Assembly (NCBI GenBank): GCA_965655095.1
Contig: OZ296658.1
Location: forward strand, 4,526,001-4,590,000
Reading direction: 5' to 3'
Source: Haplodiscus bocki
Lineage: Eukaryota
DNA: 64,000 nt
This document shows positions 20,705 to 63,221 of the stretch, piece after piece. The notes beneath the pieces are model-generated. The model saw nothing but the letters and a program-made list of their open reading frames with translations. It was not told where the DNA came from and did no database searches. How positions within the stretch are numbered: position 1 is the stretch's first letter; each line of letters begins with the position of its first letter. Made by a program: the position numbers and the translations under genes.

Positions 20705-20724
20705 TGTAAACGATTCTTTGTGAG

Positions 20725-21910: not shown

Positions 21911-22861
21911 TCAAGACAGATGGTTAATGGCGGGAGGTGGAATGACTTTTATGAGCTGTGAGCCTTTTTCGGATGCCAGAACGGCTCTTCTTTCCTTCCA
22001 GGTGATTCTTTTTAGAGTGTGCAATCGAACTTCGTTTTGAAATTTTGTCACGTGAGGTTTTTTCATGCTTCGCAGTTTTCCTATGAACAATTTTACTATG
22101 CGTCCGCAGAGAAACCTGATAAACTCTTCTGGACAAGATTCAAAAGACTTTTGGATTTGCGGGTAAATGATTGGAACACTTTGACAGTAGAGAAATTTTG
22201 TGCAGTCGTGGAGCATAGACTTCAAATGTGTCAGCCGGTCAGGGTTGAAGATTTTTTGAGGGATTGGATCCAGTGGTTGCACAGTAACGTAATCGATTTT
22301 CCGTTCGTGGCGGCAAGTCAAATAAAAGACCGTAGGGAACAGTTTTGCGTCTCGATACCAGTCAACTAACTCTGATCAGAGCCCTAAATGTGCACTAAGC
22401 ATGCTGACTGGCATCACATCAAATTGAAATTTGATGAGAACTATGTGCGTGTTTTGGAGCTCAACGTCTTGCCCAAGTTTGCTTTGCAATTTGAGAAACC
22501 AGTTGTGCTTAAGGTAAATGGTGCTCAATCCACGTTGTCTTCCAGCAGAAGCAATATCAACAAATGCTTTTGAATTGCAAATCTCTTCACATGAACTGTC
22601 GAAGATTAACAAGTACTTTGTACCGTTGTTTTCTAACGAATCAGTAAATACAAAGTTTACACCTTGAAAAAGCTCAGGATTTTCAATCTTTTTGCATAAC
22701 ATCGTAATATGGCTGGGAGTGTTGATAAAGTATTTTTTCTCAAATTTTGGTTGAAACGTTCCAATTTTGAGCCAATTGTAAATAAGTTGTGACTTTCTCT
22801 TCTCGAACGAACCGACCAATGATATAAAGACGCGATTTTTTGTAGAAATCAACTTGTTCAT
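21911..22861 (-). pseudogene. Polinton packaging ATPase remnant plus overlapping small gene
   Basis: Homologous to 60962-61919; Walker A degraded to GSFEKRKS; LLIFDS and AGRQRG remain. Confidence 0.88.
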
Positions 22862-24751: not shown

Positions 24752-27700
24752 ATGGCCTCAATCGCAACGAAAAAGTGTTTTGTGAACTTTGTGAAACACA
24801 AACTACAAAGAGGATCACTGGACGACACAAGAAAAGATGTTCAGTTGGAACACTGTACTGCTTTGAATGTCCAAATTTCTGAACGAACTCCCAAACTGAC
24901 TTGAGTTTTCATATTGTTAAGAAGCATAGCCCAACCGAATCAGAGAATGTTCACAAGTGTCACCCATGCGGTAAAAATATTCCCATTTTTGATTCCTTGC
25001 GATTACAAAGACAAAAATTCATGGAGCAAAAATTGAATCCGAAGCAAAAAGCATCGATAATAATCATATGCTCGCAGATGTGGACGACGATAGCTTCCAA
25101 GAAGCGTTAAAAACGTGCAAACACATCTTCGTCGATTCTGGTATGGAGAATGGGAGAAACAGAGTTTTTAACTTTCCAATGGATTCTCTGAACACGAACT
25201 TGTTGAATAAAAAGTTGAATTTGGTGTTTGGGAGTTTCAAATGTGGAGCCAAGTTGAATGTAGCTTTTGGCTTTGTTCTCAAAAAAATGAGGGATGGCAG
25301 TTGTCGTTACTATTATCCACACGAAAATATTACACTGATGGAAGGCTCCAAACTCGTGGATACAAAAGAAATTTTGAAAAAAATCGAGACGTCGTTCAAC
25401 AACGTTGATGCGATTGAATCCTACAAAACAGAACGAACGAACACAAAGTAGAAGTTTCACAAGGTACTCATTGTAACGTTTTCTGCTCTACTCAAAGCAG
25501 TTCCTATGGCGTGTATAAACGCTGTTTTGCCTGAACCACTCATCAAAAATAGTTCAGTCAATTGTTAGACTTTTGAAAAGAGCTTCAGAAAACCATACAA
25601 CGATAATTTATGTCTCTAGATCGCTAGTTCTTCATTTCCAGGAGAATGATAAACTGGAAGAATCGTCTAGTTTGTCGCCTATCTACAGAACATAGAGGAC
25701 CTTGATGCAGCCAATTTCCGAAGCGTTTGTATGAACCACCTTCCAACTGTTGAAGACTTGACCAAAACACACAATTTTATGAACGACATTGTTTTGTGGA
25801 TGGAGCTCTTGTTGGAGAGCTTGCGAGGAGAAGCATACATAAGTATTCCAACACTCTGATGTTGGTACGTTACTCTCACCACATTTGTTATGTCTGCAAT
25901 ATCAGCGCTCTCTTCAAAGCCTATCGTTGCCCATCGTGTGATCAGTTCATTAGTAGAGCTGGAAATCTAGAGAGACATTTGACAACTTGCAAAGAACGAT
26001 TTAAGCATTTTTCTGAAAGAACGTGAATCAGCTCCGTGAAGCACTTTTTGACAAACTAGACGCTTTTGATATACCGTACCGGATGAACAAAAGCTTTTCA
26101 AGATTACGGCTATTTCTGATTTCGAGTCAAATTGTGTGAAGGATGAAGAATTCGAAGATAAAGAAACGAAAACATGGATCGGAATACATATCACGGATGC
26201 CGTTTCAATATCGTCTATTCTTGGAGAAGATTCTGTTTTGCTCTGCAAAGTTAACCCTCGTGATTTGGTGTGATCCTTGATTGATGCTCTAGAAAACCGT
26301 GCCACACAGAGGAAAGCGCAAATGAAAATGAAATTCTTGCAAGTTGAAACTACAATACCAAGCAAATTTGCACAGATTCTCGAAATTCTTAAACAACGTC
26401 GCACCCATAGAGTCGACATCGAGGAGAACTGTCTCGAAGATGATTCTGATAAGGTCTCTACATAGTTTCCACAAATTGCAAAAAGTGGACTAAGTGATAT
26501 GCAGGATCACTTTGAGAGATATTGCAATACATTAGCAGTCTTTGGATTCAACTGTGCAAAGTACGATATCAACTTGACCAAGGCCTATTTAATACACATT
26601 CTAAATAATTAGCGAGAGATTGAACCAATTGTTATAAGGAAGGCTTGTGAATTGGTGTAGTTCAAGTTCGGTAACGTTCAGTTGCTCGACATTTTGAACT
26701 TTCTCGGCGGAGCCACGAACCTTGCATCTTTCCTCCAAGCTTACAAGACAATGGAAACAAAAGGGTTCTTTCCCTATGAATGATTCAACCCCTCCGCCCC
26801 CCGCCAAAGTGAATCCCACAGAACTTCGCCCCTATGAGACCTTTTACGATGAATTAGGAAATTGCAACCCTCTTGAGAAGGGGTGTCGAGACTATGAAAA
26901 ATTGATCTACAGCGGATTGGCGAAGGAATCTACCTTGATTACATCGAAACTCTGAGGTACCACCTCTGAATTTGAAAACTATTCTTGCTTGGAGAAATTT
27001 GGGGTGAAAATCCAGACTTTCTTAGACTTCTTGAGGTGGTAAAACAACAAAAACGTTGTCCCGACTTTGATGGTTTTAAAGAAAATAGTTACATTTTATC
27101 CCAATAAGGGTATTGACTGCTGGCTGGACGTACGATACCTAATCTCGCCATATTTTTCAAAAGTTTTCTCGCCGAGAGCGACAGACTTGCTCGAAAAAAT
27201 CCGCCTGCATATGGTCGCTGGACCTTCAACAGCGTTTACACGTAAAGCTCTAGTTGGTGAAACTCTGATTCGCAAGTCCTCAAACAATTGCAAATCAATT
27301 GTTAGGATTGAGCCCAGCAAACTTTACCCGTATTCTGTGTGTCAACCCATGCCGACAAGAGTTTCTACGAGATATGAATTTGACGAAGATTTGCAAAAAT
27401 AGAATTTCCAAGAAGACAAGAAGTTGAGAAATTATGTTCATGTCTTTTTTTCAACGAATCAGACCCTAGTGTAACTTAAAGAGGTTCTACACCACAGGAA
27501 CGGAGAAAAAGATTCATTGTTTCAGTGCAGACGGCTTTTGCGCGTATGCTTGAAGCCCTGGTTTGTTTCTATCATCACTGTTCTTACCAGGAAGCTCGGC
27601 CTTCGCTAACAGAAGACACTGAACGCGGAAATAAAAAGAGACTAATGGATGAAATGCGAAAACAATATATCAAAGAAAAAGGTTATGATATTGTGGGAAT

Positions 27701-28530
27701 GTGAGTGCTGGTCAATATAAAAGACAGGTGCATCAGTAAAGCAATAGTTGAGAGAATCGTTTCATTTCAATAGACCAATGTGAGAACAGTTATTGGAAAA
27801 AATAAAATTGAGTTCCTTGTTTGGTTATGTACAGTGTGATATTCATATTCCAGCGCATCTCAGAGAACAATTTAATTGTCCTCTAATTTTCAGAAAAACT
27901 AACGTATGCAGACAAAATATTGGTTATTTGGTGCAAGAGTATGCTGAGAGGGAAGGATTTATGTCCCAACCGCGACGAATGTTAATCTCTTGCTTTGAAC
28001 TAAAGAAGGGAAACATCAGCACCCCGTTACTCTTGTTTTATTTAGAATTGGGTCTCGTATGCAGAAAAATGTACCCATTTTTGAGTACACTCCTGTGAAA
28101 TACTTCGACGATTTTGTACTATCTGCTGATGACGCTCGACGACAAGGAGACGAAAATCCCAATTCCAGTGTTGTTGCTGAAACAATGAAATTGCTTGCCA
28201 ACAGTTCCTACGGTTATCAAATAATGGATCGTAGTCGTCCTTCTGTTACCAAATACCTGAATGGTGAGAAGACGCACGCAGGAATCAACAATAAAGTGTT
28301 CAAGAGTTTAGTTAATAATAATGATCAACTCTATGGAGTGGAACTGGTGAAGTGCGAGATTGAACATAAAGAGCCCATCATTGTAGGTTTTTTTATCTTG
28401 CAGTATGCTAAATTGAGATGTTGGAGGCCTAATACAACTTTTTTCAAAGTATTTCGATACACAGAAATACGAAGAGATGGAAATGGATACAGACTCTCTT
28501 TTTTTGCTTTTGCAGAGAGAAAGTTTCTAA
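24752..28530 (+). pseudogene. Protein-primed DNA polymerase B of Polinton 1, heavily decayed and C-terminally deleted
   Basis: Fragments match 50020-54366 (AKLNVAFGFVLK, FGYVQCDI, RRQGDENPNSSVVAETMKLLANSSYG, EMDTDSL); the sequence jumps into TIR just after DTDS. Confidence 0.92.
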
Positions 28531-31500
28531 TCTAGATGGCAATAAGTCACCACAGCAACCGCAGTCTATCAAACAATCCCAGGTGTAAAAATTAGTTGCA
28601 GCCGTAATAACTAGCCACCGGGGTATTAATAAGTTCCGCACCTTAATATTTATCCGCCGGTCGTGCCCGGCCCAGAAAAAGTATAAAAACAGTTTTTGCC
28701 GAAATCTCACTGTGCCGAAAATGACCTCAACCATCGGCACCCAATAAACACTCGTCACACAGGGGTGAAGACCCTTCTCGGCTTCTTTTACCTATCTTAA
28801 AACAGACAACGGAATCTAGAGAGACATTTGACAACTTGCAAAGAACGAGTTAAGCATTTTTCTCAAAGAACGTGAATCAGCTCCGTGAAGCACTTTTTGA
28901 CAAACTAGACGCTTTTGATATGCCGTACCGGATGAACAAAAGCTTTTCAAGATTACGGCTATTTCTGATTTCGAGTCAAATTGTGTGAAGGATGAAGAAT
29001 TCGAAGATAAAGAAACTAAAACATGGATCGGAATACATATCACGGATGCCGTTTCAATATCGTCTATTCTTGGAGAAGATTCTGTTTTGCTCTGCAAAGT
29101 TAACCCTCGTGATTTGGTGTGATCCTTGATTGATGCTCTAGAAAACCGTGCCACACAGAGGAAAGCGCAAATGAAAATGAAATTCTTGCAAGTTGAAACT
29201 ACAATACCAAGCAAATTTGCACAGATTCTCGAAATTCTGAAACAACGTCGCACCCATAGAGTCGACATCGAAGAGAACTGTCTCGAAGATGATTCTGATA
29301 AGGTCTCTACATAGTTTCCACAAATTGCAAAAAGTGGACTAAGTGATATGCAGGATCACTTTGAGAGATATTGCAATACATTAGCAGTCTTTGGATTCAA
29401 CTGTGCAAAGTACGATATCAACTTGACCAAGGCCTATTTAATACACATTCTAAATAATTAGCGAGAGATTGAACCAATTGTTATAAGGAAGGCTTGTGAA
29501 TTGGTGTAGTTCAAGTTCGGTAACGTTCAGTTGCTCGACATTTTGAACTTTCTCGGCGGAGCCACGAACCTTGCATCTTTCCTCCAAGCTTACAAGACAA
29601 TGGAAACAAAAGGGTTCTTTCCCTATGAATGATTCAACCCCTCCGCCCCCCGCCAAAGTGAATCCCACAGAACTTCGCCCCTATGAGACCTTTTACGATG
29701 AATTAGGAAATTGCAACCCTCTTGAGAAGGGGTGTCGAGACTATGAAAAATTGATCTACAGCGGATTGGCGAAGGAATCTACCTTGATTACATCGAAACT
29801 CTGAGGTACCACCTCTGAATTTGAAAACTATCCTTGCTTGGAGAAATTTGGGGTGAAAATCCAGACATTCTTAGACTTCTTGAGGTGGTAAAACAACAAA
29901 AACGTTGTCCCGACTTTGATGGTTTTAAAGAAAATAGTTACATTTTATCCCAATAAGGGTATTGACTGCTGGCTGGACGTACGATACCTAATCTCGCCAT
30001 ATTTTTCAAAAGTTTTCTCGCCGAGAGCGACAGACTTGCTCGAAAAAATCCGCCTGCATATGGTCGCTGGACCTTCAACAGCGTTTACACGTAAAGCTCT
30101 AGTTGGTGAAACTCTGATTCGCAAGTCCTCAAACAATTGCAAATCAATTGTTAGGATTGAGCCCAGCAAACTTTACCCGTATTCTGTGTGTCAACCCATG
30201 CCGACAAGAGTTTCTACGAGATATGAATTTGACGAAGATTTGCAAAAATAGAATTTCCAAGAAGACAAGAAGTTGAGAAATTATGTTCATGTCTTTTTTT
30301 CAACGAATCAGACCCTAGTGTAACTTAAAGAGGTTCTACACCACAGGAACGGAGAAAAAGATTCATTGTTTCAGTGCAGACGGCTTTTGCGCGCATGCTT
30401 GAAGCCCTGGTTTGTTTCTATCATCACTGTTCTTACCAGGAAGCTCGGCCTTCGCTAACAGAAGACACTGAACGCGGAAATAAAAAGAGACTAATGGATG
30501 AAATGCGAAAACAATATATCAAAGAAAAAGGTTATGATATTGTGGGAATGTGAGTGCTGGTCAATATAAAAGACAGGTGCATCAGTAAAGCAATAGTTGA
30601 GAGAATCGTTTCATTTCAATAGACCAATGTGAGAACAGTTATTGGAAAAAATAAAATTGAGTTCCTTGTTTGGTTATGTACAGTGTGATATTCATATTCC
30701 AGCGCATCTCAGAGAACAATTTAATTGTCCTCTAATTTTCAGAAAAACTAACGTATGCAGACAAAATATTGGTTATTTGGTGCAAGAGTATGCTGAGAGG
30801 GAAGGATTTATGTCCCAACCGCGACGAATGTTAATCTCTTGCTTTGAACTAAAGAATGGAAACATCAGCACCCCGTTACTCTTGTTTTATTTAGAATTGG
30901 GTCTCGTATGCAGAAAAATGTACCCATTTTTGAGTACACTCCTGTGAAATACTTCGACGATTTTGTACTATCTGCTGATGACGCTCGACGACAAGGAGAC
31001 GAAAATCCCAATTCCAGTGTTGTTGCTGAAACAATGAAATTGCTTGCCAACAGTTCCTACGGTTATCAAATAATGGATCGTAGTCGTCCTTCTGTTACCA
31101 AATACCTGAATGGTGAGAAGACGCACGCAGGAATCAACAATAAAGTGTTCAAGAGTTTAGTTAATAATAATGATCAACTCTATGGAGTGGAACTGGTGAA
31201 GTGCGAGATTGAACATAAAGAGCCCATCATTGTAGGTTTTTTTTATCTTGCAGTATGCTAAATTGAGATGTTGGAGGCCTAATACAACTTTTTTCAAAGT
31301 ATTTCGATACACAGAAATACGAAGAGATGGAAATGGATACAGACTCTCTTTTTTGCTTTTGCAGAGAGAAAGTTTCTAATCTAGATGGCAATAAGTCACC
31401 ACAGCAACCGCAGTCTATCAAACAATCCCAGGTGTAAAAATTAGTTGCAGCCGTAATAACTAGCCACCGGGGTATTAATAAGTTCCGCACCTTAATATTT

Positions 31501-34500
31501 ATCCGCCGGTCGTGCCCGGCCCAGAAAAAGTATAAAAACAGTTTTTGCCGAAATCTCACTGTGCCGAAAATGACCTCAACCATCGGCACCCAATAAACAC
31601 TCGTCACACAGGGGTGAAGACCCTTCTCGGCTTCTTTTACCTATCTTAAAACAGACAACGGAATCTAGAGAGACATTTGACAAATTGCAAAGAACGAGTT
31701 AAGCATTTTTCTCAAAGAACGTGAATCAGCTCCGTGAAGCACTTTTTGACAAACTAGACGCTTTTGATATGCCGTACCGGATGAACAAAAGCTTTTCAAG
31801 ATTACGGCTATTTCTGATTTCGAGTCAAATTGTGTGAAGGATGAAGAATTCGAAGATAAAGAAACTAAAACATGGATCGGAATACATATCACGGATGCCG
31901 TTTCAATATCGTCTATTCTTGGAGAAGATTCTGTTTTGCTCTGCAAAGTTAACCCTCGTGATTTGGTGTGATCCTTGATTGATGCTCTAGAAAACCGTGC
32001 CACACAGAGGAAAGCGCAAATGAAAATGAAATTCTTGCAAGTTGAAACTACAATACCAAGCAAATTTGCACAGATTCTCGAAATTCTTAAACAACGTCGC
32101 ACCCATAGAGTCGACATCGAAGAGAACTGTCTCGAAGATGATTCTGATAAGGTCTCTACATAGTTTCCACAAATTGCAAAAAGTGGACTAAGTGATATGC
32201 AGGATCACTTTGAGAGATATTGCAATACATTAGCAGTCTTTGGATTCAACTGTGCAAAGTACGATATCAACTTGACCAAGGCCTATTTAATACACATTCT
32301 AAATAATTAGCGAGAGATTGAACCAATTGTTATAAGGAAGGCTTGTGAATTGGTGTAGTTCAAGTTCGGTAACGTTCAGTTGCTCGACATTTTGAACTTT
32401 CTCGGCGGAGCCACGAACCTTGCATCTTTCCTCCAAGCTTACAAGACAATGGAAACAAAAGGGTTCTTTCCCTATGAATGATTCAACCCCTCCGCCCCCC
32501 GCCAAAGTGAATCCCACAGAACTTCGCCCCTATGAGACCTTTTACGATGAATTAGGAAATTGCAACCCTCTTGAGAAGGGGTGTCGAGACTATGAAAAAT
32601 TGATCTACAGCGGATTGGCGAAGGAATCTACCTTGATTACATCGAAACTCTGAGGTACCACCTCTGAATTTGAAAACTATTCTTGCTTGGAGAAATTTGG
32701 GCTGAAAATCCAGACTTTCTTAGACTTCTTGAGGTGGTAAAACAACAAAAACGTTGTCCCGACTTTGATGGTTTTAAAGAAAATAGTTACATTTTATCCC
32801 AATAAGGGTATTGACTGCTGGCTGGACGTACGATACCTAATCTCGCCATATTTTTCAAAAGTTTTCTCGCCGAGAGCGACAGACTTGCTCGAAAAAATCC
32901 GCCTGCATATGGTCGCTGGACCTTCAACAGCGTTTACACGTAAAGCTCTAGTTGGTGAAACTCTGATTCGCAAGTCCTCAAACAATTGCAAATCAATTGT
33001 TAGGATTGAGCCCAGCAAACTTTACCCGTATTCTGTGTGTCAGCCCATGCCGACAAGAGTTTCTACGAGATATGAATTTGACGAAGATTTGCAAAAATAG
33101 AATTTCCAAGAAGACAAGAAGTTGAGAAATTATGTTCATGTCTTTTTTTCAACGAATCAGACCCTAGTGTAACTTAAAGAGGTTCTACACCACAGGAACG
33201 GAGAAAAAGATTCATTGTTTCAGTGCAGACGGCTTTTGCGCGTATGCTTGAAGCCCTGGTTTGTTTCTATCATCACTGTTCTTACCAGGAAGCTCGGCCT
33301 TCGCTAACAGAAGACACTGAACGCGGAAATAAAAAGAGACTAATGGATGAAATGCGAAAACAATATATCAAAGAAAAAGGTTATGATATTGTGGGAATGT
33401 GAATGCTGGTCAATATAAAAGACAGGTGCATCAGTAAAGCAATAGTTGAGAGAATCGTTTCATTTCAATAGACCAATGTGAGAACAGTTATTGGAAAAAA
33501 TAAAATTGAGTTCCTTGTTTGGTTATGTACAGTGTGATATTCATATTCCAGCGCATCTCAGAGAACAATTTAATTGTCCTCTAATTTTCAAAAAAACTAA
33601 CGTATGCAGACAAAATATTGGTTATTTGGTGCAAGAGTATGCTGAGAGGGAAGGATTTATGTCCCAACCGCGACGAATGTTAATCTCTTGCTTTGCACTA
33701 AAGAATGGAAACATCAGCACCCCGTTACTCTTGTTTTATTTAGAATTGGGTCTCGTATGCAGAAAAATTACCCATTTGTGAGTACACTCCTGTGAAATAC
33801 TTCGACGATTTTGTACTATCTGCTGATGACGCTCGACGACAAGGAGACGAAAATCCCAATTCCAGTGTTGTTGCTGAAACAATGAAATTGCTTGCCAACA
33901 GTTCCTACGGTTATCAAATAATGGATCGTAGTCGTCCTTCTGTTACCAAATACCTGAATGGTGAGAAGACGCACGCAGGAATCAACAATAAAGTGTTCAA
34001 GAGTTTAGTTAATAATAATGATCAACTCTATGGAGTGGAACTGGTGAAGTGCGAGATTGAACATAAAGAGCCCATCATTGTAGGTTTTTTCATCTTGCAG
34101 TATGCTAAATTGAGATGTTGGAGGCCTAATACAACTTTTTTCAAAGTATTTCGATATACAGAAATACGAAGAGATGGAAATGGATACAGACTCTCTTTTT
34201 TTGCTTTTGCAGAGAGAAAGTTTCTAATCTAGATGGCAATAAGTCACCACAGCAACCGCAGTCTATCAAACAATCCCAGGTGTAAAAATTAGTTGCAGCC
34301 GTAATAACTAGCCACCGGGGTATTAATAAGTTCCGCACCTTAATATTTATCCGCCGGTCGTGCCCGGCCCAGAAAAAGTATAAAAACAGTTTTTGCCGAA
34401 ATCTCACTGTGCCGAAAATGACCTCAACCATCGGCACCCAATAAACACTCGTCACACAGGGGTGAAGACCCTTCTCGGCTTCTTTTACCTATCTTAAAAC

Positions 34501-37500
34501 AGACAACGGAATCTAGAGAGACATTTGACAAATTGCAAAGAACGAGTTAAGCATTTTTCTCAAAGAACGTGAATCAGCTCCGTGAAGCACTTTTTGACAA
34601 ACTAGACGCTTTTGATATGCCGTACCGGATGAACAAAAGCTTTTCAAGATTACGGCTATTTCTGATTTCGAGTCAAATTGTGTGAAGGATGAAGAATTCG
34701 AAGATAAAGAAACTAAAACATGGATCGGAATACATATCACGGATGCCGTTTCAATATCGTCTATTCTTGGAGAAGATTCTGTTTTGCTCTGCAAAGTTAA
34801 CCCTCGTGATTTGGTGTGATCCTTGATTGATGCTCTAGAAAACCGTGCCACACAGAGGAAAGCGCAAATGAAAATGAAATTCTTGCAAGTTGAAACTACA
34901 ATACCAAGCAAATTTGCACAGATTCTCGAAATTCTTAAGCAACGTCGCACCCATAGAGTCGACATCGAAGAGAACTGTCTCGAAGATGATTCTGATAAGG
35001 TCTCTACATAGTTTCCACAAATTGCAAAAAGTGGACTAAGTGATATGCAGGATCACTTTGAGAGATATTGCAATACATTAGCAGTCTTTGGATTCAACTG
35101 TGCAAAGTACGATATCAACTTGACCAAGGCCTATTTAATACACATTCTAAATAATTAGCGAGAGATTGAACCAATTGTTATAAGGAAGGCTTGTGAATTG
35201 GTGTAGTTCAAGTTCGGTAACGTTCAGTTGCTCGACATTTTGAACTTTCTCGGCGGAGCCACGAACCTTGCATCTTTCCTCCCAGCTTACAAGACAATGG
35301 AAACAAAAGGGTTCTTTCCCTATGAATGATTCAACCCCTCCGCCCCCCGCCAAAGAGAATCCCACAGAACTTCGCCCCTATGAGACCTTTTACGATGAAT
35401 TAGGAAATTGCAACCCTCTTGAGAAGGGGTGTCGAGACTATGAAAAATTGATCTACAGCGGATTGGCGAAGGAATCTACCTTGATTACATCGAAACTCTG
35501 AGGTACCACCTCTGAATTTGAAAACTATCCTTGCTTGGAGAAATTTGGGGTGAAAATCCAGACATTCTTAGACTTCTTGAGGTGGTAAAACAACAAAAAC
35601 GTTGTCCCGACTTTGATGGTTTTAAAGAAAATAGTTACATTTTATCCCAATAAGGGTATTGACTGCTGGCTGGACGTACGATACCTAATCTCGCCATATT
35701 TTTCAAAAGTTTTCTCGCCGAGAGCGACAGACTTGCTCGAAAAAATCCGCCTGCATATGGTCGCTGGACCTTCAACAGCGTTTACACGTAAAGCTCTAGT
35801 TGGTGGAACTCTGATTCGCAAGTCCTCAAACATTTGCAAATCGATTGTTAGGATTGAGCCCAGCAAACTTTACCCGTATTCTGTGTGTCAACCCATGCCG
35901 ACAAGAGTTTCTACGAGATTTGAATTTGACGAAGATTTGCAAAAATAGAATTTCCAAGAAGACAAGAAGTTGAGAAATTATGTTCATGTCTTTTTTTCAA
36001 CGAATCAGACCCTAGTGTAACTTAAAGAGGTTCTACACCACAGGAACGGAGAAAAAGATTCATTGTTTCAGTGCAGACGGCTTTTGCGCGTATGCTTGAA
36101 GCCCTGGTTTGTTTCTATCATCACTGTTCTTACCAGGAAGCTCGGCTTTCGCTAACAGAAGACACTGAACGCGGAAATAAAAAGAGACTAATGGATGAAA
36201 TGCGAAAACAATATATCAAAGAAAAAGGTTATGATATTGTGGGAATGTGAGTGCTGGTCAATATAAAAGACAGGTGCATCAGTAAAGCAATAGTTGAGAG
36301 AATCGTTTCATTTCAATAGACCAATGTGAGAACAGTTATTGGAAAAAATAAAATTGAGTTCCTTGTTTGGTTATGTACAGTGTGATATTCATATTCCAGC
36401 GCATCTCAGAGAACAATTTAATTGTCCTCTACTTTTCAAAAAAACTAACGTATGCAGACAAAATATTGGTTATTTGGTGCAAGAGTATGCTGAGAGGGAA
36501 GGATTTATGTCCCAACCGCGACGAATGTTAATCTCTTGCTTTGAACTAAAGAATGGAAACATCAGCACCCCGTTACTCTTGTTTTATTTAGAATTGGGTC
36601 TCGTATGCAGAAAAATGTACCCATTTTTGAGTACACTCCTGTGAAATACTTCGACGATTTTGTACTATCTGCTGATGACGCTCGACGACAAGGAGACGAA
36701 AATCCCAATTCCAGTGTTGTTGCTGAAACAATGAAATTGCTTGCCAACAGTTCCTACGGTTATCAAATAATGGATCGTAGTCGTCCTGTTACCAAATACC
36801 TGAATGGTGAGAAGACGCACGCAGGAATCAACAATAAAGTGTTCAAGAGTTTAGTTAATAATAATGATCAACTCTATGGAGTGGAACTGGTGAAGTGCGA
36901 GATTGAACATAAAGAGCCCATCATTGTAGGTTTTTTCATCTTGCAGTATGCTAAATTGAGATGTTGGAGGCCTAATACAACTTTTTTCAAAGTATTTCGA
37001 TACACAGAAATACGAAGAGATGGAAATGGATACAGACTCTCTTTTTTGCTTTTGCAGAGAGAAAGTTTCTAATCTAGATGGCAATAAGTCACCACAGCAA
37101 CCGCAGTCTATCAAACAATTCCAGGTGTAAAAATTAGTTGCAGCCGTAATAACTAGCCACCGGGGTATTAATAAGTTCCGCACCTTAATATTTATCCGCC
37201 GGTCGTGCCCGGCCCAGAAAAAGTATAAAAACAGTTTTTGCCGAAATCTCACTGTGCCGAAAATGACCTCAACCATCGGCACCCAATAAACACTCGTCAC
37301 ACAGGGGTGAAGACCCTTCTCGGCTTCTTTTACCTATCTTAAAACAGACAACGGAATCTAGAGAGACATTTGACAAATTGCAAAGAACGAGTTAAGCATT
37401 TTTCTCAAAGAACGTGAATCAGCTCCGTGAAGCACTTTTTGACAAACTAGACGCTTTTGATATGCCGTACCGGATGAACAAAAGCTTTTCAAGATTACGG

Positions 37501-40500
37501 CTATTTCTGATTTCGAGTCAAATTGTGTGAAGGATGAAGAATTCGAAGATAAAGAAACTAAAACATGGATCGGAATACATATCACGGATGCCGTTTCAAT
37601 ATCGTCTATTCTTGGAGAAGATTCTGTTTTGCTCTGCAAAGTTAACCCTCGTGATTTGGTGTGATCCTTGATTGATGCTCTAGAAAACCGTGCCACACAG
37701 AGGAAAGCGCAAATGAAAATGAAATTCTTGCAAGTTGAAACTACAATACCAAGCAAATTTGCACAGATTCTCGAAATTCTTAAGCAACGTCGCACCCATA
37801 GAGTCGACATCGAAGAGAACTGTCTCGAAGATGATTCTGATAAGGTCTCTACATAGTTTCCACAAATTGCAAAAAGTGGACTAAGTGATATGCAGGATCA
37901 CTTTGAGAGATATTGCAATACATTAGCAGTCTTTGGATTCAACTGTGCAAAGTACGATATCAACTTGACCAAGGCCTATTTAATACACATTCTAAATAAT
38001 TAGCGAGAGATTGAACCAATTGTTATAAGGAAGGCTTGTGAATTGGTGTAGTTCAAGTTCGGTAACGTTCAGTTGCTCGACATTTTGAACTTTCTCGGCG
38101 GAGCCACGAACCTTGCATCTTTCCTCCCAGCTTACAAGACAATGGAAACAAAAGGGTTCTTTCCCTATGAATGATTCAACCCCTCCGCCCCCCGCCAAAG
38201 AGAATCCCACAGAACTTCGCCCCTATGAGACCTTTTACGATGAATTAGGAAATTGCAACCCTCTTGAGAAGGGGTGTCGAGACTATGAAAAATTGATCTA
38301 CAGCGGATTGGCGAAGGAATCTACCTTGATTACATCGAAACTCTGAGGTACCACCTCTGAATTTGAAAACTATCCTTGCTTGGAGAAATTTGGGGTGAAA
38401 ATCCAGACATTCTTAGACTTCTTGAGGTGGTAAAACAACAAAAACGTTGTCCCGACTTTGATGGTTTTAAAGAAAATAGTTACATTTTATCCCAATAAGG
38501 GTATTGACTGCTGGCTGGACGTACGATACCTAATCTCGCCATATTTTTCAAAAGTTTTCTCGCCGAGAGCGACAGACTTGCTCGAAAAAATCCGCCTGCA
38601 TATGGTCGCTGGACCTTCAACAGCGTTTACACGTAAAGCTCTAGTTGGTGGAACTCTGATTCGCAAGTCCTCAAACATTTGCAAATCGATTGTTAGGATT
38701 GAGCCCAGCAAACTTTACCCGTATTCTGTGTGTCAACCCATGCCGACAAGAGTTTCTACGAGATTTGAATTTGACGAAGATTTGCAAAAATAGAATTTCC
38801 AATAAGACAAGAAGTTGAGAAATTATGTTCATGTCTTTTCAACGAATCAGACCCTAGTGTAACTTAAAGAGGTTCTACACCACAGGAACGGAGAAAAAGA
38901 TTCATTGTTTCAGTGCAGACGGCTTTTGCGCGTATGCTTGAAGCCCTGGTTTGTTTCTATCATCACTGTTCTTACCAGGAAGCTCGGCTTTCGCTAACAG
39001 AAGACACTGAACGCGGAAATAAAAAGAGACTAATGGATGAAATGCGAAAACAATATATCAAAGAAAAAGGTTATGATATTGTGGGAATGTGAGTGCTGGT
39101 CAATATAAAAGACAGGTGCATCAGTAAAGCAATAGTTGAGAGAATCGTTTCATTTCAATAGACCAATGTGAGAACAGTTATTGGAAAAAATAAAATTGAG
39201 TTCCTTGTTTGGTTATGTACAGTGTGATATTCATATTCCAGCGCATCTCAGAGAACAATTTAATTGTCCTCTACTTTTCAAAAAAACTAACGTATGCAGA
39301 CAAAATATTGGTTATTTGGTGCAAGAGTATGCTGAGAGGGAAGGATTTATGTCCCAACCGCGACGAATGTTAATCTCTTGCTTTGAACTAAAGAATGGAA
39401 ACATCAGCACCCCGTTACTCTTGTTTTATTTAGAATTGGGTCTCGTATGCAGAAAAATGTACCCATTTTTGAGTACACTCCTGTGAAATACTTCGACGAT
39501 TTTGTACTATCTGCTGATGACGCTCGACGACAAGGAGACGAAAATCCCAATTCCAGTGTTGTTGCTGAAACAATGAAATTGCTTGCCAACAGTTCCTACG
39601 GTTATCAAATAATGGATCGTAGTCGTCCTGTTACCAAATACCTGAATGGTGAGAAGACGCACGCAGGAATCAACAATAAAGTGTTCAAGAGTTTAGTTAA
39701 TAATAATGATCAACTCTATGGAGTGGAACTGGTGAAGTGCGAGATTGAACATAAAGAGCCCATCATTGTAGGTTTTTTCATCTTGCAGTATGCTAAATTG
39801 AGATGTTGGAGGCCTAATACAACTTTTTTCAAAGTATTTCGATACACAGAAATACGAAGAGATGGAAATGGATACAGACTCTCTTTTTTGCTTTTGCAGA
39901 GAGAAAGTTTCTAATCTAGATGGCAATAAGTCACCACAGCAACCGCAGTCTATCAAACAATTCCAGGTGTAAAAATTAGTTGCAGCCGTAATAACTAGCC
40001 ACCGGGGTATTAATAAGTTCCGCACCTTAATATTTATCCGCCGGTCGTGCCCGGCCCAGAAAAAGTATAAAAACAGTTTTTGCCGAAATCTCACTGTGCC
40101 GAAAATGACCTCAACCATCGGCACCCAATAAACACTCGTCACACAGGGGTGAAGACCCTTCTCGGCTTCTTTTACCTATCTTAAAACAGACAACGGAATC
40201 TAGAGAGACATTTGACAACTTGCAAAGAACGAGTTAAGCATTTTTCTCAAAGAACGTGAATCAGCTCCGTGAAGCACTTTTTGACAAACTAGACGCTTTT
40301 GATATGCCGTACCGGATGAACAAAAGCTTTTCAAGATTACGGCTATTTCTGATTTCGAGTCAAATTGTGTGAAGGATGAAGAATTCGAAAATAAAGAAAC
40401 TAAAACATGGATCGGAATACATATCACGGATGCCGTTTCAATATCGTCTATTCTTGGAGAAGATTCTGTTTTGCTCTGCAAAGTTAACCCTCGTGATTTG

Positions 40501-43500
40501 GTGTGATCCTTGATTGATGCTCTAGAAAACCGTGCCACACAGAGGAAAGCGCAAATGAAAATGAAATTCTTGCAAGTTGAAACTACAATACCAAGCAAAT
40601 TTGCACAGATTCTCGAAATTCTTAAACAACGTCGCACCCATAGAGTCGACATCGAAGAGAACTGTCTCGAAGATGATTCTGATAAGGTCTCTACATAGTT
40701 TCCACAAATTGCAAAAAGTGGACTAAGTGATATGCAGGATCACTTTGAGAGATATTGCAATACATTAGCAGTCTTTGGATTCAACTGTGCAAAGTACGAT
40801 ATCAACTTGACCAAGGCCTATTTAATACACATTCTAAATAATTAGCGAGAGATTGAACCAATTGTTATAAGGAAGGCTTGTGAATTGGTGTAGTTCAAGT
40901 TCGGTAACGTTCAGTTGCTCGACATTTTGAACTTTCTCGGCGGAGCCACGAACCTTGCATCTTTCCTCCAAGCTTACAAGACAATGGAAACAAAAGGGTT
41001 CTTTCCCTATGAATGATTCAACCCCTCCGCCCCCCGCCAAAGTGAATCCCACAGAACTTCGCCCCTATGAGACCTTTTACGATGAATTAGGAAATTGCAA
41101 CCCTCTTGAGAAGGGGTGTCGAGACTATGAAAAATTGATCTACAGCGGATTGGCGAAGGAATCTACCTTGATTACATCGAAACTCTGAGGTACCACCTCT
41201 GAATTTGAAAACTATCCTTGCTTGGAGAAATTTGGGGTGAAAATGCAGACTTTCTTAGACTTCTTGAGGTGGTAAAACAACAAAAACGTTGTCCCGACTT
41301 TGATGGTTTTAAAGAAAATAGTTACATTTTATCCCAATAAGGGTATTGACTGCTGGCTGGACGTACGATACCTAATCTCGCCATATTTTTCAAAAGTTTT
41401 CTCGCCGAGAGCGACAGACTTGCTCGAAAAAATCCGCCTGCATATGGTCGCTGGACCTTCAACAGCGTTTACACGTAAAGCTCTAGTTGGTGAAACTCTG
41501 ATTCGCAAGTCCTCAAACATTTGCAAATCAATTGTTAGGATTGAGCCCAGCAAACTTTACCCGTATTCTGTGTGTCAACCCATGCCGACAAGAGTTTCTA
41601 CGAGATATGAATTTGACGAAGATTTGCAAAAATAGAATTTCCAATAAGACAAGAAGTCGAGAAATTATGTTCATGTCTTTTCAACGAATCAGACCCTAGT
41701 GTAACTTAGAGAGGTTCTACACCACAGGAACGGAGAAAAAGATTCATTGTTTCAGTGCAGACGGCTTTTGCGCGTATGCTTGAAGCCCTGGTTTGTTTCT
41801 ATCATCACTGTTCTTACCAGGAAGCTCGGCCTTCGCTAACAGAAGACACTGAACGCGGAAATAAAAAGAGACTAATGGATGAAATGCGAAAACAATATAT
41901 CAAAGAAAAAGGTTATGATATTGTGGGAATGTGAATGCTGGTCAATATAAAAGACAGGTGCATCAGTAAAGCAATAGTTGAGAGAATCGTTTCATTTCAA
42001 TAGACCAATGTGAGAACAGTTATTGGAAAAAATAAAATTGAGTTCCTTGTTTGGTTATGTACAGTGTGATATTCATATTCCAGCGCATCTCAGAGAACAA
42101 TTTAATTGTCCTCTAATTTTCAAAAAAACTAACGTATGCAGACAAAATATTGGTTATTTGGTGCAAGAGTATGCTGAGAGGGAAGGATTTATGTCCCAAC
42201 CGCGACGAATGTTAATCTCTTGCTTTGAACTAAAGAATGGAAACATCAGCACCCCGTTACTCTTGTTTTATTTAGAATTGGGTCTCGTATGCAGAAAAAT
42301 GTACCCATTTTTGAGTACACTCCTGTGAAATATTTCGACGATTTTGTACTATCTGCTGATGACGCTCGACGACAAGGAGACGAAAATCCCAATTCCAGTG
42401 TTGTTGCTGAAACAATGAAATTGCTTGCCAACAGTTCCTACGGTTATCAAATAATGGATCGTAGTCGTCCTGTTACCAAATACCTGAATGGTGAGAAGAC
42501 GCACGCAGGAATCAACAATAAAGTGTTCAAGAGTTTAGTTAATAATAATGATCAACTCTATGGAGTGGAACTGGTGAAGTGCGAGATTGAACATAAAGAG
42601 CCCATCATTGTAGGTTTTTTCATCTTGCAGTATGCTAAATTGAGATGTTGGAGGCCTAATACAACTTTTTTCAAAGTATTTCGATACACAGAAATACGAA
42701 GAGATGGAAATGGATACAGACTCTCTTTTTTGCTTTTGCAGAGAGAAAGTTTCTAATCTAGATGGCAATAAGTCACCACAGCAACCGCAGTCTATCAAAC
42801 AATTCCAGGTGTAAAAATTAGTTGCAGCCGTAATAACTAGCCACCGGGGTATTAATAAGTTCCGCACCTTAATATTTATCCGCCGGTCGTGCCCGGCCCA
42901 GAAAAAGTATAAAAACAGTTTTTGCCGAAATCTCACTGTGCCGAAAATGACCTCAACCATCGGCACCCAATAAACACTCGTCACACAGGGGTGAAGACCC
43001 TTCTCGGCTTCTTTTACCTATCTTAAAACAGACAACGGAATCTAGAGAGACATTTGACAACTTGCAAAGAACGAGTTAAGCATTTTTCTCAAAGAACGTG
43101 AATCAGCTCCGTGAAGCACTTTTTGACAAACTAGACGCTTTTGATATGCCGTACCGGATGAACAAAAGCTTTTCAAGATTACGGCTATTTCTGATTTCGA
43201 GTCAAATTGTGTGAAGGATGAAGAATTCGAAAATAAAGAAACTAAAACATGGATCGGAATACATATCACGGATGCCGTTTCAATATCGTCTATTCTTGGA
43301 GAAGATTCTGTTTTGCTCTGCAAAGTTAACCCTCGTGATTTGGTGTGATCCTTGATTGATGCTCTAGAAAACCGTGCCACACAGAGGAAAGCGCAAATGA
43401 AAATGAAATTCTTGCAAGTTGAAACTACAATACCAAGCAAATTTGCACAGATTCTCGAAATTCTTAAACAACGTCGCACCCATAGAGTCGACATCGAAGA

Positions 43501-45876
43501 GAACTGTCTCGAAGATGATTCTGATAAGGTCTCTACATAGTTTCCACAAATTGCAAAAAGTGGACTAAGTGATATGCAGGATCACTTTGAGAGATATTGC
43601 AATACATTAGCAGTCTTTGGATTCAACTGTGCAAAGTACGATATCAACTTGACCAAGGCCTATTTAATACACATTCTAAATAATTAGCGAGAGATTGAAC
43701 CAATTGTTATAAGGAAGGCTTGTGAATTGGTGTAGTTCAAGTTCGGTAACGTTCAGTTGCTCGACATTTTGAACTTTCTCGGCGGAGCCACGAACCTTGC
43801 ATCTTTCCTCCAAGCTTACAAGACAATGGAAACAAAAGGGTTCTTTCCCTATGAATGATTCAACCCCTCCGCCCCCCGCCAAAGTGAATCCCACAGAACT
43901 TCGCCCCTATGAGACCTTTTACGATGAATTAGGAAATTGCAACCCTCTTGAGAAGGGGTGTCGAGACTATGAAAAATTGATCTACAGCGGATTGGCGAAG
44001 GAATCTACCTTGATTACATCGAAACTCTGAGGTACCACCTCTGAATTTGAAAACTATCCTTGCTTGGAGAAATTTGGGGTGAAAATGCAGACTTTCTTAG
44101 ACTTCTTGAGGTGGTAAAACAACAAAAACGTTGTCCCGACTTTGATGGTTTTAAAGAAAATAGTTACATTTTATCCCAATAAGGGTATTGACTGCTGGCT
44201 GGACGTACGATACCTAATCTCGCCATATTTTTCAAAAGTTTTCTCGCCGAGAGCGACAGACTTGCTCGAAAAAATCCGCCTGCATATGGTCGCTGGACCT
44301 TCAACAGCGTTTACACGTAAAGCTCTAGTTGGTGAAACTCTGATTCGCAAGTCCTCAAACATTTGCAAATCAATTGTTAGGATTGAGCCCAGCAAACTTT
44401 ACCCGTATTCTGTGTGTCAACCCATGCCGACAAGAGTTTCTACGAGATATGAATTTGACGAAGATTTGCAAAAATAGAATTTCCAATAAGACAAGAAGTC
44501 GAGAAATTATGTTCATGTCTTTTCAACGAATCAGACCCTAGTGTAACTTAGAGAGGTTCTACACCACAGGAACGGAGGAAAAGATTCATTGTTTCAGTGC
44601 AGACGGCTTTTGCGCGTATGCTTGAAGCCCTGGTTTGTTTCTATCATCACTGTTCTTACCAGGAAGCTCGGCCTTCGCTAACAGAAGACACTGAACGCGG
44701 AAATAAAAAGAGACTAATGGATGAAATGCGAAAACAATATATCAAAGAAAAAGGTTATGATATTGTGGGAATGTGAATGCTGGTCAATATAAAAGACAGG
44801 TGCATCAGTAAAGCAATAGTTGAGAGAATCGTTTCATTTCAATAGACCAATGTGAGAACAGTTATTGGAAAAAATAAAATTGAGTTCCTTGTTTGGTTAT
44901 GTACAGTGTGATATTCATATTCCAGCGCATCTCAGAGAACAATTTAATTGTCCTCTAATTTTCAAAAAAACTAACGTATGCAGACAAAATATTGGTTATT
45001 TGGTGCAAGAGTATGCTGAGAGGGAAGGATTTATGTCCCAACCGCGACGAATGTTAATCTCTTGCTTTGAACTAAAGAATGGAAACATCAGCACCCCGTT
45101 ACTCTTGTTTTATTTAGAATTGGGTCTCGTATGCAGAAAAATGTACCCATTTTTGAGTACACTCCTGTGAAATACTTCGACGATTTTGTACTATCTGCTG
45201 ATGACGCTCGACGACAAGGAGACGAAAATCCCAATTCCAGTGTTGTTGCTGAAACAATGAAATTGCTTGCCAACAGTTCCTACGGTTATCAAATAATGGA
45301 TCGTAGTCGTCCTTCTGTTACCAAATACCTGAATGGTGAGAAGACGCACGCAAGAATCAACAATAAAGTGTTCAAGAGTTTAGTTAATAATAATGATCAA
45401 CTCTATGGAGTGGAACTGGTGAAGTGCGAGATTGAACATGAAGAGCCCATCATTGTAGGTTTTTTTATCTTGCAGTATGCTAAATTGAGATGTTGGAGGC
45501 CTAATACAACTTTTTTCAAAGTATTTCGATACACAGAAATACGAAGAGATGGAAATGGATACAGACTCTCTTTTTTGCTTTTGCAGAGAGAAAGTTTCTA
45601 ATCTAGATGGCAATAAGTCACCACAGCAACCGCAATCTATCAAACAATCCCAGGTGTAAAAATTAGTTGCAGCCGTAATAACTAGCCACCGGGGTATTAA
45701 TAAGTTCCGCACCTTAATATTTATCCGCCGGTCGTGCCCGGCCCAGAAAAAGTATAAAAACAGTTTTTGCCGAAATCTCACTGTGCCGAAAATGACCTCA
45801 ACCATCGGCACCCAATAAACACTCGTCACACAGGGGTGAAGACCCTTCTCGGCTCCTTTTACCTATCTTAAAACAG
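25961..45876 (+). repeat. Tandem array of 7 units of ~2.85 kb (pPolB pseudogene fragment + inner TIR)
   Basis: An anchor sequence recurs at 25967, 28816, 31665, 34513, 37358, 40200 and 43042 (periods 2849, 2849, 2848, 2845, 2842, 2842); all six junctions read ...ttaaaacag-acaac-ggaatctagag. Confidence 0.98.
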
Positions 45877-46155
45877 GGTCTTCATCCCCCCTGTTTTAAG
45901 GTTCATCCCCTGGTTGTTTTACTCTCCCTTATACTACTTAACTCCATATCTTAATATATGCCGAACACACTCGGCTCTCCCCCTGTCTTAATACATTGAT
46001 CCAACGTAATAACATGCCAACCGAGGGGGGGGGGGGTGCGCCACCCGATGAACACTGATTTTGCCCACCATTCGGCTCTCACAGCCTATAGCTTATATTA
46101 ATACATGGATGGGGCCTCCACCACCCCCACCAGATCTGCTCACTGTCTTACAACT
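45610..46155 (-). repeat. Right terminal inverted repeat of Polinton 1
   Basis: Inverse of 17020-17785; followed by TSD tcggat. Confidence 0.9.
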
Positions 46156-47484
46156 TCGGATAGTATTTCTTTTATCGAAAAACCGAAAATTTTGAAAATT
46201 TTTAATCACCAAAACTTGTTGAACGCCTGCCCCTTTAGAACAAGTGGCAGATTTTGTCAATGCCTTCCAGAACTTCAAAGAGGGAATCACCTGGAACTTT
46301 GAGACTCGATGCTAAAGTCTTTAAAATAAGGCTGAATCAACTGAAATTTGCCTTCAAATTACCCTCAGAACTGACAGAAAAAATCTGAATGTCTTGTTCG
46401 TCTGGAAGACTTTGGTTTAAAAAAAAACTTGAAAAATTCACGAATGTCCAAAAAGTGATATTAACAAGACCTTGCTTTTGAAAAATACGACCCTTAAAAT
46501 TGTCCAAAAATAAAATCCGGAGACGCAAAATAACAATGAACGTGTAGCTATTCAAAAAATTAACCCAGGCTGATTACCCTGGTTGATCTAACTCATGCTT
46601 CTCCATTCTTTCCCTACATTCCTCCTCCCTCCCCGAATTCTCCTAGACACATCCCTCTAGTGTGCTGTGTTTCAGAAGTGTTCTCTTGGTCCCAATGCGA
46701 GTTGTTTGGAGCTCTCAACAGTGACATCACCGATGGAAACTCGCCCATCTTGAGTTGTCTAGTGAGATACAAACTTTTTATTCTTTTACTACAACCTTTT
46801 TCTAGAATTCTGCTTGATTTCCTGTTCGGTATCCGGACTTTTTTTAGAAGAACATGGGTAAGTCCAGACTGAGTTTTGATGTAATATTTGCAGGAACCGC
46901 TTTCAAATCAAACATCTAATTGAAGCGCTACTCTGATTTCAGAAGCTCCTGGAAGCTAACATTTCCTTGAAACAAGGATAGAAACCACGTTTACCAACTC
47001 GGAAAGAAAAACGGTGGTAAAATCCCATGTAGTCTGAAGTTGCGCCAAAAAGTAGAAGTAGAGGTGAATGACGAAAAAGCCAGTTTTTACGCATTCTGAC
47101 TGAGAAGACGGATGCGTATGGAAACTGGTTTATTCTTAGTTTTAAGGCATTGAGCCGAAAGGATTAAGGTCTGCAGATTTTACTTTTTACGCGTCTTCGC
47201 TCCATTTTCCAAATCCATTCTGAGCGATAGTGGAACGTAATGATTTCTTTCTACCTATTCACTGCAAATCATTTCTCTTCTCCAAACTAGAGCTAACGTG
47301 ACTTTACCGTTCCATTTCAAGTACATGTGGTAATGATTTGAATATTCTCAAATTAGCCAATCTAATCGCATCTGATGTTCAAAAACGGCCTCGTTTCGCA
47401 GATACTTGTTCATTTTAGCATTTTTTTTACTGTTGAAGCTTCTCAAAAATTCGGCGGTAAAATGACGTAACCTGAAGAAACAAA

Positions 47485-47834: not shown

Positions 47835-49365
47835 GAAACAAAATTTTCGAGTAGATCCGTGACAGGTACTTTTCTCAGTTGCCGTTTTCGAAAAAACGTT
47901 TGGTTGAGAGCTGGTTAAGTTTTTCCTAAAAGTGTCAATCACATCTCCGATCATGGTGTCAAATGTCGTTTGGGATCCGTGATCTCAAGTCAGAATGTGC
48001 TGCGAAATTCAGCTCCGCGTCTTTGTTAAAAATTATAGTCAATTTTAGCAAAATGAACATTCTAAATTCTGATCGCGTATTGCGTGGCATCCTTGATGCT
48101 TACGTTTTTTTGGCCCATGTTCAAAAACGGAAGGAAAATCTGCAGCCGCGACGGGGGTTTGCTCAAGTATACTTGCCAGTTGTACGATACTGGCATTCTC
48201 GTAAAATCGGGCTATTTTTTGTCACCAATTTTTGGACAATTTACTGTAAAATCAGGATAAAATATCTATTTTTTGAATTTTTTTTCAAATAGGAAAAATG
48301 ACAAATTTGCTGTAGAAATGCGTTTTTTCGACAAAAATTTAGTGTCCAAAAAAATCTGGAAATTTTAAACCGAAAAAAAGCAGCAGTAATGCTGTAATTG
48401 CACAAAAGTTTTTTTCCTAAAAATGCAGATTTATTACACGTTCTGACTGAAAGGAAGAATGTGCAATGGAAACCGGCTTATGCATAGTTTTTTTCTGTCC
48501 AAAACTTGCCTTTTGTGTCGTCATCACAGAGTCTAGTCATCTAGTGTAAATAGACAAAAAGTCCTTTTTGAAACATCTTAGCAGGTACTTGTTTATTTTC
48601 GCGGTCTGAGAAGTGCAAAATTTTTCAACATTGGTCTGAAAAATGAACAACAGCGATTTAAAAATAATGTGTCACATAACAATATTTTGAATGAGACTGT
48701 GGGCAGTGTATTACGAGTAGTATATGGGCGAGTGAGACAGCCAGGGGGTGATGACCCTCATGTTTTAAGTTAGGTATAGGATCCGAGAGCCGAGAAGGGT
48801 CATCACCCTCTCTGTGACGTGTTTTTATTGGTTATTGAACGACTTTTCCAGGCCCCCCGCGCCGGCGGTGATTTTATTACGCAATACTATTACGGCCGCG
48901 AATATTTATTGCGCCTGAGGACATCTTTGTACGCCTGTGGTTACTTTTATGTGATGATTCCATTAAGGTTTTAGGAAGATCAATTAGAGTACAAGTGGAG
49001 ATGTTTACAAAAAATGGATAGAAATTGGAGAAGGTTCATTTAAGTACAAAAAGTAACGTTGATAGAATTGAAAGCTTATATACAAGTAGTAAGAGTGTGA
49101 GCTGAGGTGGTGGGGGGGGGGGGGGTGGGGGACCCTCCATGTATTAAGATAGGCTATAGCAGCCGACTCGTGCCCAGGGCCGAGAAGGGCCCCCCACCCA
49201 TGTATTAAGATAGGGCATGTTCCGGCAATGTATTAAGATAGGGTATGTTTCGGCACTGTGATACTCGATTCTGATTGGCTGACGAGGTTTTAGGGTTTTT
49301 TCGTGCTCGATTCTGATTGGCTGCCGACAAGAATTTGGTTTTGGGCTAAATTTGGGTTTTTTCTT

Positions 49366-49590
49366 AATGTATTAAGATAGGGTATAGTTCGGCTCAATGT
49401 TTTAAGATAGGGTATAGTTCGGCTCAATGTATTAAGATAGGGTATAGTTCGGCTCAATGTATTAAGATAGGGTATAGTTCGGTTCAATGTATTAAGATAG
49501 GGTATAAGTCAGTTCAATGTATTAAGATAGGGTATAAGTCGGTTCAATGTATAAAGATAGGGTATAGTTCGGTTCAATGTATAAAGATTT
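49366..49590 (+). repeat. 30-bp minisatellite (aatgtattaagatagggtatagttcggytc), about 7.5 copies, in the terminal region
   Basis: Units start at 49366, 49396, 49426, 49456, 49486, 49516, 49546 and 49576. Confidence 0.95.
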
Positions 49591-49780
49591 GGAATAGGGT
49601 ATTTTCGGCACTCTGCGACAATTTTCGGTTTTCTTTCGAATTTTTGGGCACCTGCGCCCGCTCGGGATAATTATTCCGCCGCCGGATAATTTTTACGCCG
49701 CCGCGGGATAATTTTTCCGCCGTCGGATAATTTTCCCATTAGTAGTATAGTGTGAGCAGAAGTGGGGGGGGGGAAGACGA

Positions 49781-49867
49781 GGTCTCCTACGGGGACTCGA
49801 ACCTGCGCGGACGGAGTGGTGGAAAAGTAAATCCGGCCGGCGGTCGTATCCGCGGCGCCACGGGAGC
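49781..49867 (-). ncRNA. tRNA-like Pol III type-2 promoter unit (box A + box B)
   Basis: Minus strand GCTCCCG-TGGCGCCGCGG (box A-like at +8), 46 nt, then GGTTCGAGTCC (box B, 49803-49793). No proper anticodon arm. Confidence 0.4.
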
Positions 49868-61919: not shown

Positions 61920-61920
61920 G

Positions 61921-63219: not shown

Positions 63220-63221
63220 AT

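Follow-up and report, generated by a model that had tools for sequence, protein, structure and literature searches.

A tandem array of seven units formed from a dead polymerase gene within its own Polinton in Haplodiscus bocki

Structure of the array and of its host element

The window analyzed here is a stretch of 64,000 nt from Haplodiscus bocki (GCA_965655095.1, contig OZ296658.1, positions 4,526,001-4,590,000, forward strand), to which all coordinates refer. It contains a decayed Polinton, Polinton 1 (17020-46155), in which part of the broken gene for a family B DNA polymerase of the protein-primed type (pPolB) and an inner part of the terminal inverted repeat (TIR) are repeated in tandem, and a second element, Polinton 2, against whose open reading frames (ORFs) reading-frame damage was scored by a frame-aware comparison. 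Features are collected in Table 1.

The repeat units were found by self-BLAST of the window, followed by pairwise comparison of the seven units (21 pairs). The self-BLAST ladder over 25964-45876, with offsets of 2849, 5698, 8546, 11391, 14233, and 17075 at 99.1-99.5%, corresponds to seven head-to-tail units of 2.84-2.85 kb that are 99.2-99.9% alike, the array spanning 19.9 kb. Pairs of units differ by 1-23 substitutions and 0-4 small indels (divergence mean 0.57%, maximum 0.81%), in agreement with an earlier reading of this DNA (hereafter, the original prediction) that had described seven slightly different units of pPolB pseudogene and inner TIR. Each unit covers residues ~360-1243 of the Polinton 2 pPolB ORF, to which it aligns at about 60%, followed by 270 bp of inner TIR. 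The polymerase gene is cut just past the polymerase C motif, and the ~160 C-terminal residues are missing from all units. Relative to the Polinton 2 ORF, each unit carries 11-12 stops and 13-14 frameshifts, nearly all at common places. The units had been said to share the same stops and frameshifts; this holds for nearly all of the ~25 breaks, the exceptions being one stop present in units 1-5 and absent from units 6-7, and a private 1-bp indel in each of units 2 and 3. The CpG observed/expected ratio of the unit (0.91, against 0.75-1.01 elsewhere in the window) gives no deamination signal.

As previously proposed, the array is continuous with its host on both sides, the upstream pPolB running into unit 1 and unit 7 running into the outer right TIR. 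An identical 7-nt filler is found at six of the six junctions, and there is no microhomology between the two breakpoints. A templated origin of the filler was considered from a 6-mer match lying 17 nt inside the unit, and was rejected as evidence since random fillers equal this match 18% of the time. On the right, the breakpoint (45876) is 1 nt away from a TIR motif copy at 45865-45875. A bacterial promoter scan, which is not apt for an animal host, returned nothing at the junction, and the junction 30-mer had no match in metagenome contigs, an uninformative set for an animal locus. The same 8-mer occurs at the unit start (25964) and at an older pPolB/TIR deletion join (~28529); it partly aligns with the TIR and is probably there by chance.

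Table 1. Coordinates of the features of Polinton 1, its array, and Polinton 2 in the window.
Feature	Position	Strand	Remarks
Target-site duplication, left copy	17014..17019		6 bp
Left TIR of Polinton 1	17020..17784	+	(AGT)2 end motif; second end-like motif at 17487; 200-bp palindromic insertion 17121-17320
Decayed major-capsid-like gene, stop-free piece	18526..18813	-	Weak lead; Atlas 0.94, recognition 1910, under threshold
Decayed minor-capsid (penton)-like gene	19966..20716	-	161/244 codons identical to those of Polinton 2; 3 stops, 8 frameshifts
Decayed RVE integrase	20724..21586	-	180/281 identical to Polinton 2; 6 stops, 6 frameshifts
Decayed packaging ATPase	21927..22861	-	179/306 identical to Polinton 2; 1 stop, 5 frameshifts
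pPolB pseudogene, single-copy 5' part	24898..25963	+	Reaches about residue 360 of the Polinton 2 ORF
Unit 1	25964..28812	+	pPolB residues about 360-1243, inner TIR, 7-nt filler; private variants clustered at outer 5' end
Unit 2	28813..31661	+	
Unit 3	31662..34509	+	
Unit 4	34510..37354	+	1 substitution and one 3-bp indel relative to unit 5
Unit 5	37355..40196	+	
Unit 6	40197..43038	+	
Unit 7	43039..45876	+	No filler; continues into true right TIR; private variants clustered at outer 3' end
Right TIR, outer unamplified part	45877..46155	-	End motif with one mismatch
Target-site duplication, right copy	46156..46161		6 bp
Polinton 2 (reference, outside array)	49086..64000		pPolB, ATPase, integrase, penton-like gene
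Polinton 2 pPolB	50020-54366	-	One in-frame stop, 54223-54225

The host element is flanked at both ends by a perfect 6-bp target-site duplication (TSD), TCGGAT, which had been reported as intact and is so. It begins with an (AGT)2 motif whose right copy has one mismatch, and would measure 12,061 bp without the six extra units. Its TIRs, rightly described as strongly diverged, differ at 85 of 517 aligned sites (16.4%; Kimura two-parameter (K2P) distance 0.187). Every recognised gene of Polinton 1 is broken by comparison with Polinton 2. The capsid-like genes gave Atlas matches of 0.97 (with the minor-capsid cluster among them) and 0.94 (major capsid), both below the recognition threshold of 2300, and the minor-capsid-like ORF had no Pfam match. 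No Ulp1-type cysteine protease was matched among the 22 ORFs of at least 150 aa, the decayed frames not having been searched with a protease profile; none of the five Polinton 2 accessory ORFs tested has a counterpart in Polinton 1, and an Rfam search gave 0 matches.

Two further features were observed at the ends of the element. The insertion at 17121-17320 in the left TIR is 93.5% self-complementary, has TGT...ACA ends and an apparent 5-bp duplication, and resembles a Ginger-type miniature inverted-repeat transposable element (MITE). Past the right TSD, the flank (46156-46165) opens with four bases like the element's own end, so that the target site resembles a Polinton terminus, which may be chance.

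Age of the array relative to the element

The decay of Polinton 1 was estimated in two ways. The K2P distance between the TIRs corresponds to about 9% change per copy, and a change of 10-11% per site (interval 5-19%) follows from the 11-12 stops of the polymerase pseudogene. Inside the array, the differences of greatest age are those at the outer edges, which amount to 1.2-1.4% and 0.7-1.1%. The element is thus ~10% decayed according to both clocks, and the array set in at ~1% divergence. Judging from these ratios, amplification would have begun in roughly the last 5-8% of the residence of the element. Amplification in situ, long after inactivation, as the original prediction had it, is supported because the units share their disablements, because the two decay clocks contrast with an onset at ~1%, and because the TSD is intact and the sequence directly upstream of the array has single-copy read depth.

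The array in public reads

The read evidence consists of contigs from four public runs of one study, covering two samples: S1, which may be the assembled sample (three runs), and S2 (one run). Copy number was taken from single contigs, summed bin depths being excluded from that use. The junction 28812->25964 was found in all four runs at depths of 93.6, 54.2, 90.3, and 157.7, against 16.4, 9.04, 18.5, and 55.9, respectively, for the unique contig directly upstream. In S1, the ratio of unit to upstream depth was 4.8-6.2 over 11 unit contigs, for an expectation of 6.1-6.4 from the assembly. In S2, it was 1.3-2.8 over six contigs and 2.8 at the junction, i.e., about three units per upstream copy, contig depth being a rough measure and 85% of this run having been read. 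This comparison suggests copy-number variation between the samples. In run X3, a base private to unit 3 has a depth of 16 and a base of units 2, 4, and 5 a depth of 48.5, for 18.5 upstream, which fits one and three copies. Within unit 1, 15 differences from the assembly were listed; 13 of them recur in its other units, and the remaining two are confined to S2. The upstream depth equals that of a single unit, no donor copy is seen in S1, and depth in the four runs allows no large family of the array unit. Absence of spanning reads combined with a depth near 1/7 of the flanks had been put forward as the mark of an assembly artefact; although no record spans the array, the presence of the junction in every run and the S1 ratio largely refute such an artefact.

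Elsewhere in the element, over 25423-25487, each of the three S1 runs has contigs that depart from the window, in up to nine places and with the full depth of a single copy; in S2 the sequence is that of the window. The summed depth of contigs lies mostly at 10^3-10^5 (to >100,000) over the capsid-integrase-ATPase half (17800-24400), whereas it stays near single-locus level over most of pPolB (24424-28812), most bins of the amplified part, at about 50-220, representing the array itself. This contrast between two similarly decayed halves could reflect an abundant family lacking this type of polymerase, or a module swap.

Growth of the array

The distribution of variants among units carries the history of the array. 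Among 45 variant sites, 24 are shared between units, 20 of them by neighbouring units (permutation P 0.019), and neighbours also share 8 of the 11 distinct patterns (P 0.017). The four-gamete test was failed by 63 of 276 site pairs, which is incompatible with a single tree. Successive neighbours differ by 12, 16, 21, 2, 16, and 9 changes (mean 12.7), and units 1 and 7 have 11 private sites, of which the outer quarter holds 9 (P 1e-4). Neighbours are most alike and edges diverged, as local homogenisation produces. Moreover, two separate one-period stretches hold at most two differences, one over units 4/5 and the other starting in unit 5 at position ~1900-2270; these are read as two recent single-unit gains in different phases, accompanied by short conversion tracts. 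Taken together, the variant pattern favors a history in which a non-homologous duplication happened once and unequal exchange and conversion came after it, over a single rolling-circle burst.

The sequence of events is probably the following. The element inserted, decayed by about 10%, lost the C-terminus of pPolB and gained the insertion in its left TIR, all of which its present structure shows. A single non-homologous tandem duplication, whose structure is preserved in the junctions, then brought the inner right TIR against a mid-gene point of the dead pPolB, with the 7-nt filler in between, presumably through end-joining repair or template switching. From two copies, the array would have reached seven as sister chromatids or homologues exchanged unequally, unit by unit and in different phases, with short conversion tracts and with the outer edges of units 1 and 7 escaping homogenisation. 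Finally, copy number may still differ between samples, for which the depth data provide moderate support. The locus is probably a fossil Polinton housing a tandem array that is neutral and driven by the host, for which no product or function is needed.

Several observations weigh against this reading or temper it. The test for one-period stretches is rough: its P of 0.03 is for a single window of this kind, and the null takes no account of non-independence. The outgroups polarise few edge sites, and only one of these (unit position 2821) shows an edge unit keeping the older base; with the left TIR as outgroup, unit 7 keeps the older base at one site and carries the newer base at another. Besides, unequal crossover cannot be told apart from conversion or break-induced copying with one haplotype. 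As regards the reads, the S1 ratio, 5.4 when pooled, would correspond to about six units and not seven, the count of seven and the order of the units rest on the assembly since no record spans the array in the contigs of the four runs, and the roughness of contig depth and the partial S2 run bear on the difference between samples.

Other origins of the array

The alternative that survives best, although it is unlikely, is that a 2.85-kb circle was excised, copied into a concatemer by rolling circle and recombined into the parent, exchange later reshuffling the units. This would give the same outer anatomy with a single type of junction, and rolling-circle amplification is among the routes named in the literature (PMC3648361; PMC12628747). 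However, a one-step burst predicts a star pattern, while more than half of the variant sites (24/45) occur in several units, for the most part adjacent ones; units 4 and 5 are twins, and units 6 and 7 form a pair shifted in phase. Rolling circle can therefore survive only as the seeding step.

The duplication itself might have been favored by the element. The breakpoint at 45876 sits 1 nt from a TIR motif that also forms a minisatellite in Polinton 2. The TIR sub-repeats may be conceived as hot spots of breakage or template switching, on which proteins from live relatives might act in trans by cutting or binding, dead Polintons then repeatedly seeding arrays of kilobase units at this motif. 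We hold this to be quite improbable. If true, such hot spots would represent, in a Polinton-rich genome, a recurrent and element-specific source of macrosatellites instead of a one-off accident.

Selection for a source of small RNAs is another possibility, and a very doubtful one. The array might have been kept or enlarged as a source of piRNAs or siRNAs directed against Polintons, since the left half of the element (17800-24400) has very many genomic relatives and each unit holds a piece of inner TIR; more generally, piRNAs are described as silencing transposons in animal germlines (PMC9659126). The original prediction had suggested that the array could serve as a small-RNA source against active relatives such as Polinton 2. 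This suggestion finds no support in the sequences: among the 2829 21-mers of the unit, none matches 48700-64000 perfectly, 3 do so if one mismatch is allowed and 24 if two are allowed, and none of 2824 26-mers matches Polinton 2 with at most one mismatch. Furthermore, in the reads no region has fewer close relatives than the amplified part, the closest of the 95 homologues tested (of 150 long enough) is 63% identical to the unit, the units form no hairpin, being direct repeats, and the presumed target itself carries a stop in pPolB.

An assembly artefact, namely a collapsed or over-expanded repeat or a mixture of haplotypes, is scarcely credible. The missing spanning record, the S1 depth ~12% under expectation and the nine-difference patch at 25423-25487 could be invoked in its favor, but the junction is present in 4/4 runs, the X3 depths of unit-specific bases fit the assembly and the variants are structured, not random; if the assembly errs, the unit count would be off by about one at most. 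Least plausible of all is that the array formed during a replication of the dead element for which an active relative provided the machinery in trans, the element inserting here afterwards. The perfect TSD and the abundance of relatives would allow this, but to find a 6-bp TSD still perfect at 16% divergence is nothing unusual (about 0.34 by arithmetic), the end motif on the right carries a mutation, 16% separates the two TIRs, one of which holds an insertion, no donor copy is seen in S1 depth and the variants show stepwise growth.

Comparison with known transposon-derived repeats

The repeats described here are head-to-tail kilobase units derived from a transposon, as in transposon-derived macrosatellites. 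Classical satellite DNA consists of long arrays of very many copies, and seven units over 19.9 kb are too small to be filed under it. The proposal of a nascent satellite is thus retained in part: the anatomy and the probable copy-number difference fit, while seven copies at one locus amount only to a seed. The array works like a seed from which a transposon-derived macrosatellite could grow, and nothing indicates a function.

Tandem repeats with Polinton homology have been reported before, such as LmiSat34-299 of Locusta migratoria, a satellite matching Polinton coding sequence (PMC4935994), and CgiSat52 of Crassostrea gigas, with a 1656-bp monomer classed as Polinton (PMC8268682). These are genome-wide families known by homology, for which the passages concerned describe no parent element or junction, although the supplements may show a similar anatomy. 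In contrast, the array of H. bocki, of seven copies, has not left the parent element, whose TIRs and TSD are still there, and it keeps a readable history. No other array still inside an intact Polinton was found in a literature search that left most subscription papers uncovered.

The closest worked-out mechanism is that of the maize repeats CRM1TR and CRM4TR, as they are presented in PMC3648361. As here, their monomer was cut from a transposon and includes part of its terminal repeat, and it arose by illegitimate joining followed by local growth and homogenisation through conversion or unequal exchange. They derive, however, from the LTR (long terminal repeat) and the UTR (untranslated region) of Ty3/gypsy elements, are centromeric and were seeded by an LTR-UTR~LTR structure, whereas here a pseudogene of Polinton coding sequence was the source and a simple tandem duplication with a filler was the seed. 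The potato centromeric repeats (1-5.4 kb) and Sobo (4.7-kb monomer) also have kilobase monomers derived from transposons, but they extend over hundreds of kilobases and are retrotransposon-derived (as cited in PMC3648361). Internal repeats of MITEs and Helitrons, as well as hobo tandems, are explained by the same two-stage model, in which a few copies are expanded by unequal exchange; according to the same account, they arise by transposition-linked routes or from pre-existing internal repeats (PMC12628747), whereas the present array arose after the death of the element.

The process of satellite birth is already known, and this array is an unusually readable case of it. Transposon-derived satellites are mostly recognised long after their origin and by homology alone. 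Here, one locus shows the parent element with its TSD, the junction that founded the array, two recent gains of a single unit and what is probably a difference between samples. It overturns nothing, and it offers a convenient case on which to test the two-stage model of how satellites are born and the rates at which unequal exchange occurs.

Polinton 2 and other elements of the window

Hallmarks of Polintons/Mavericks comprise pPolB, RVE integrase, ATPase, capsid-like genes, and TIRs (PMC11161782, PMC8097293), and the definition of Mavericks includes the (AGT)2 end motif and a 6-bp TSD (PMC8097293). Polinton 1 has the TIRs, the (AGT)2 end, the 6-bp TSD, the integrase, and the ATPase, and differs in that all its recognised genes are broken. 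In Polinton 2, the integrase matches PF00665 and the packaging ATPase PF04665. The pPolB ORF of this element (1400 aa) was not recognised directly in Pfam, PHROGs, or PDB sequence searches, in which nothing appeared beyond weak matches to zinc fingers and a VSR-like endonuclease. Over 869 aa it shares 72% identity with the homologue P0033, which matches PF03175 above the cut-off, and it qualifies indirectly, through this homologue, as a protein-primed family B polymerase. Family B polymerase motifs are visible in the ORF. The closest named homologues belong to marine invertebrates (33-36% identity), and no relatives of P0003 were present in the viral contigs searched. The in-frame stop of this gene sits near the N-terminus, as judged against full-length homologues of 1444-1447 aa; given this stop, Polinton 2 does not appear clearly active.

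The terminal regions of both Polintons hold outer and inner end-like motifs (17020, 17487, 45931, 48716, 49086, 49741). An extra TIR-like remnant starts at 48716, ahead of the apparent end of Polinton 2 at 49086. At 49137-49627, the TIR sub-repeat motif is amplified in Polinton 2 as a 30-bp minisatellite, and an AT-rich block of short degenerate tandem repeats lies further inside this element (57128-57622).

Finally, the window contains a pair of long interspersed nuclear elements, for which no TSD was found in the window. The two copies (3708-6169 and 9875-12336) are inverted, with their 3' tails outward, and show four differences in 2462 bp. They encode a reverse transcriptase, with an endonuclease domain in addition in the longer ORF (3771-6683), the right copy being 5'-truncated.

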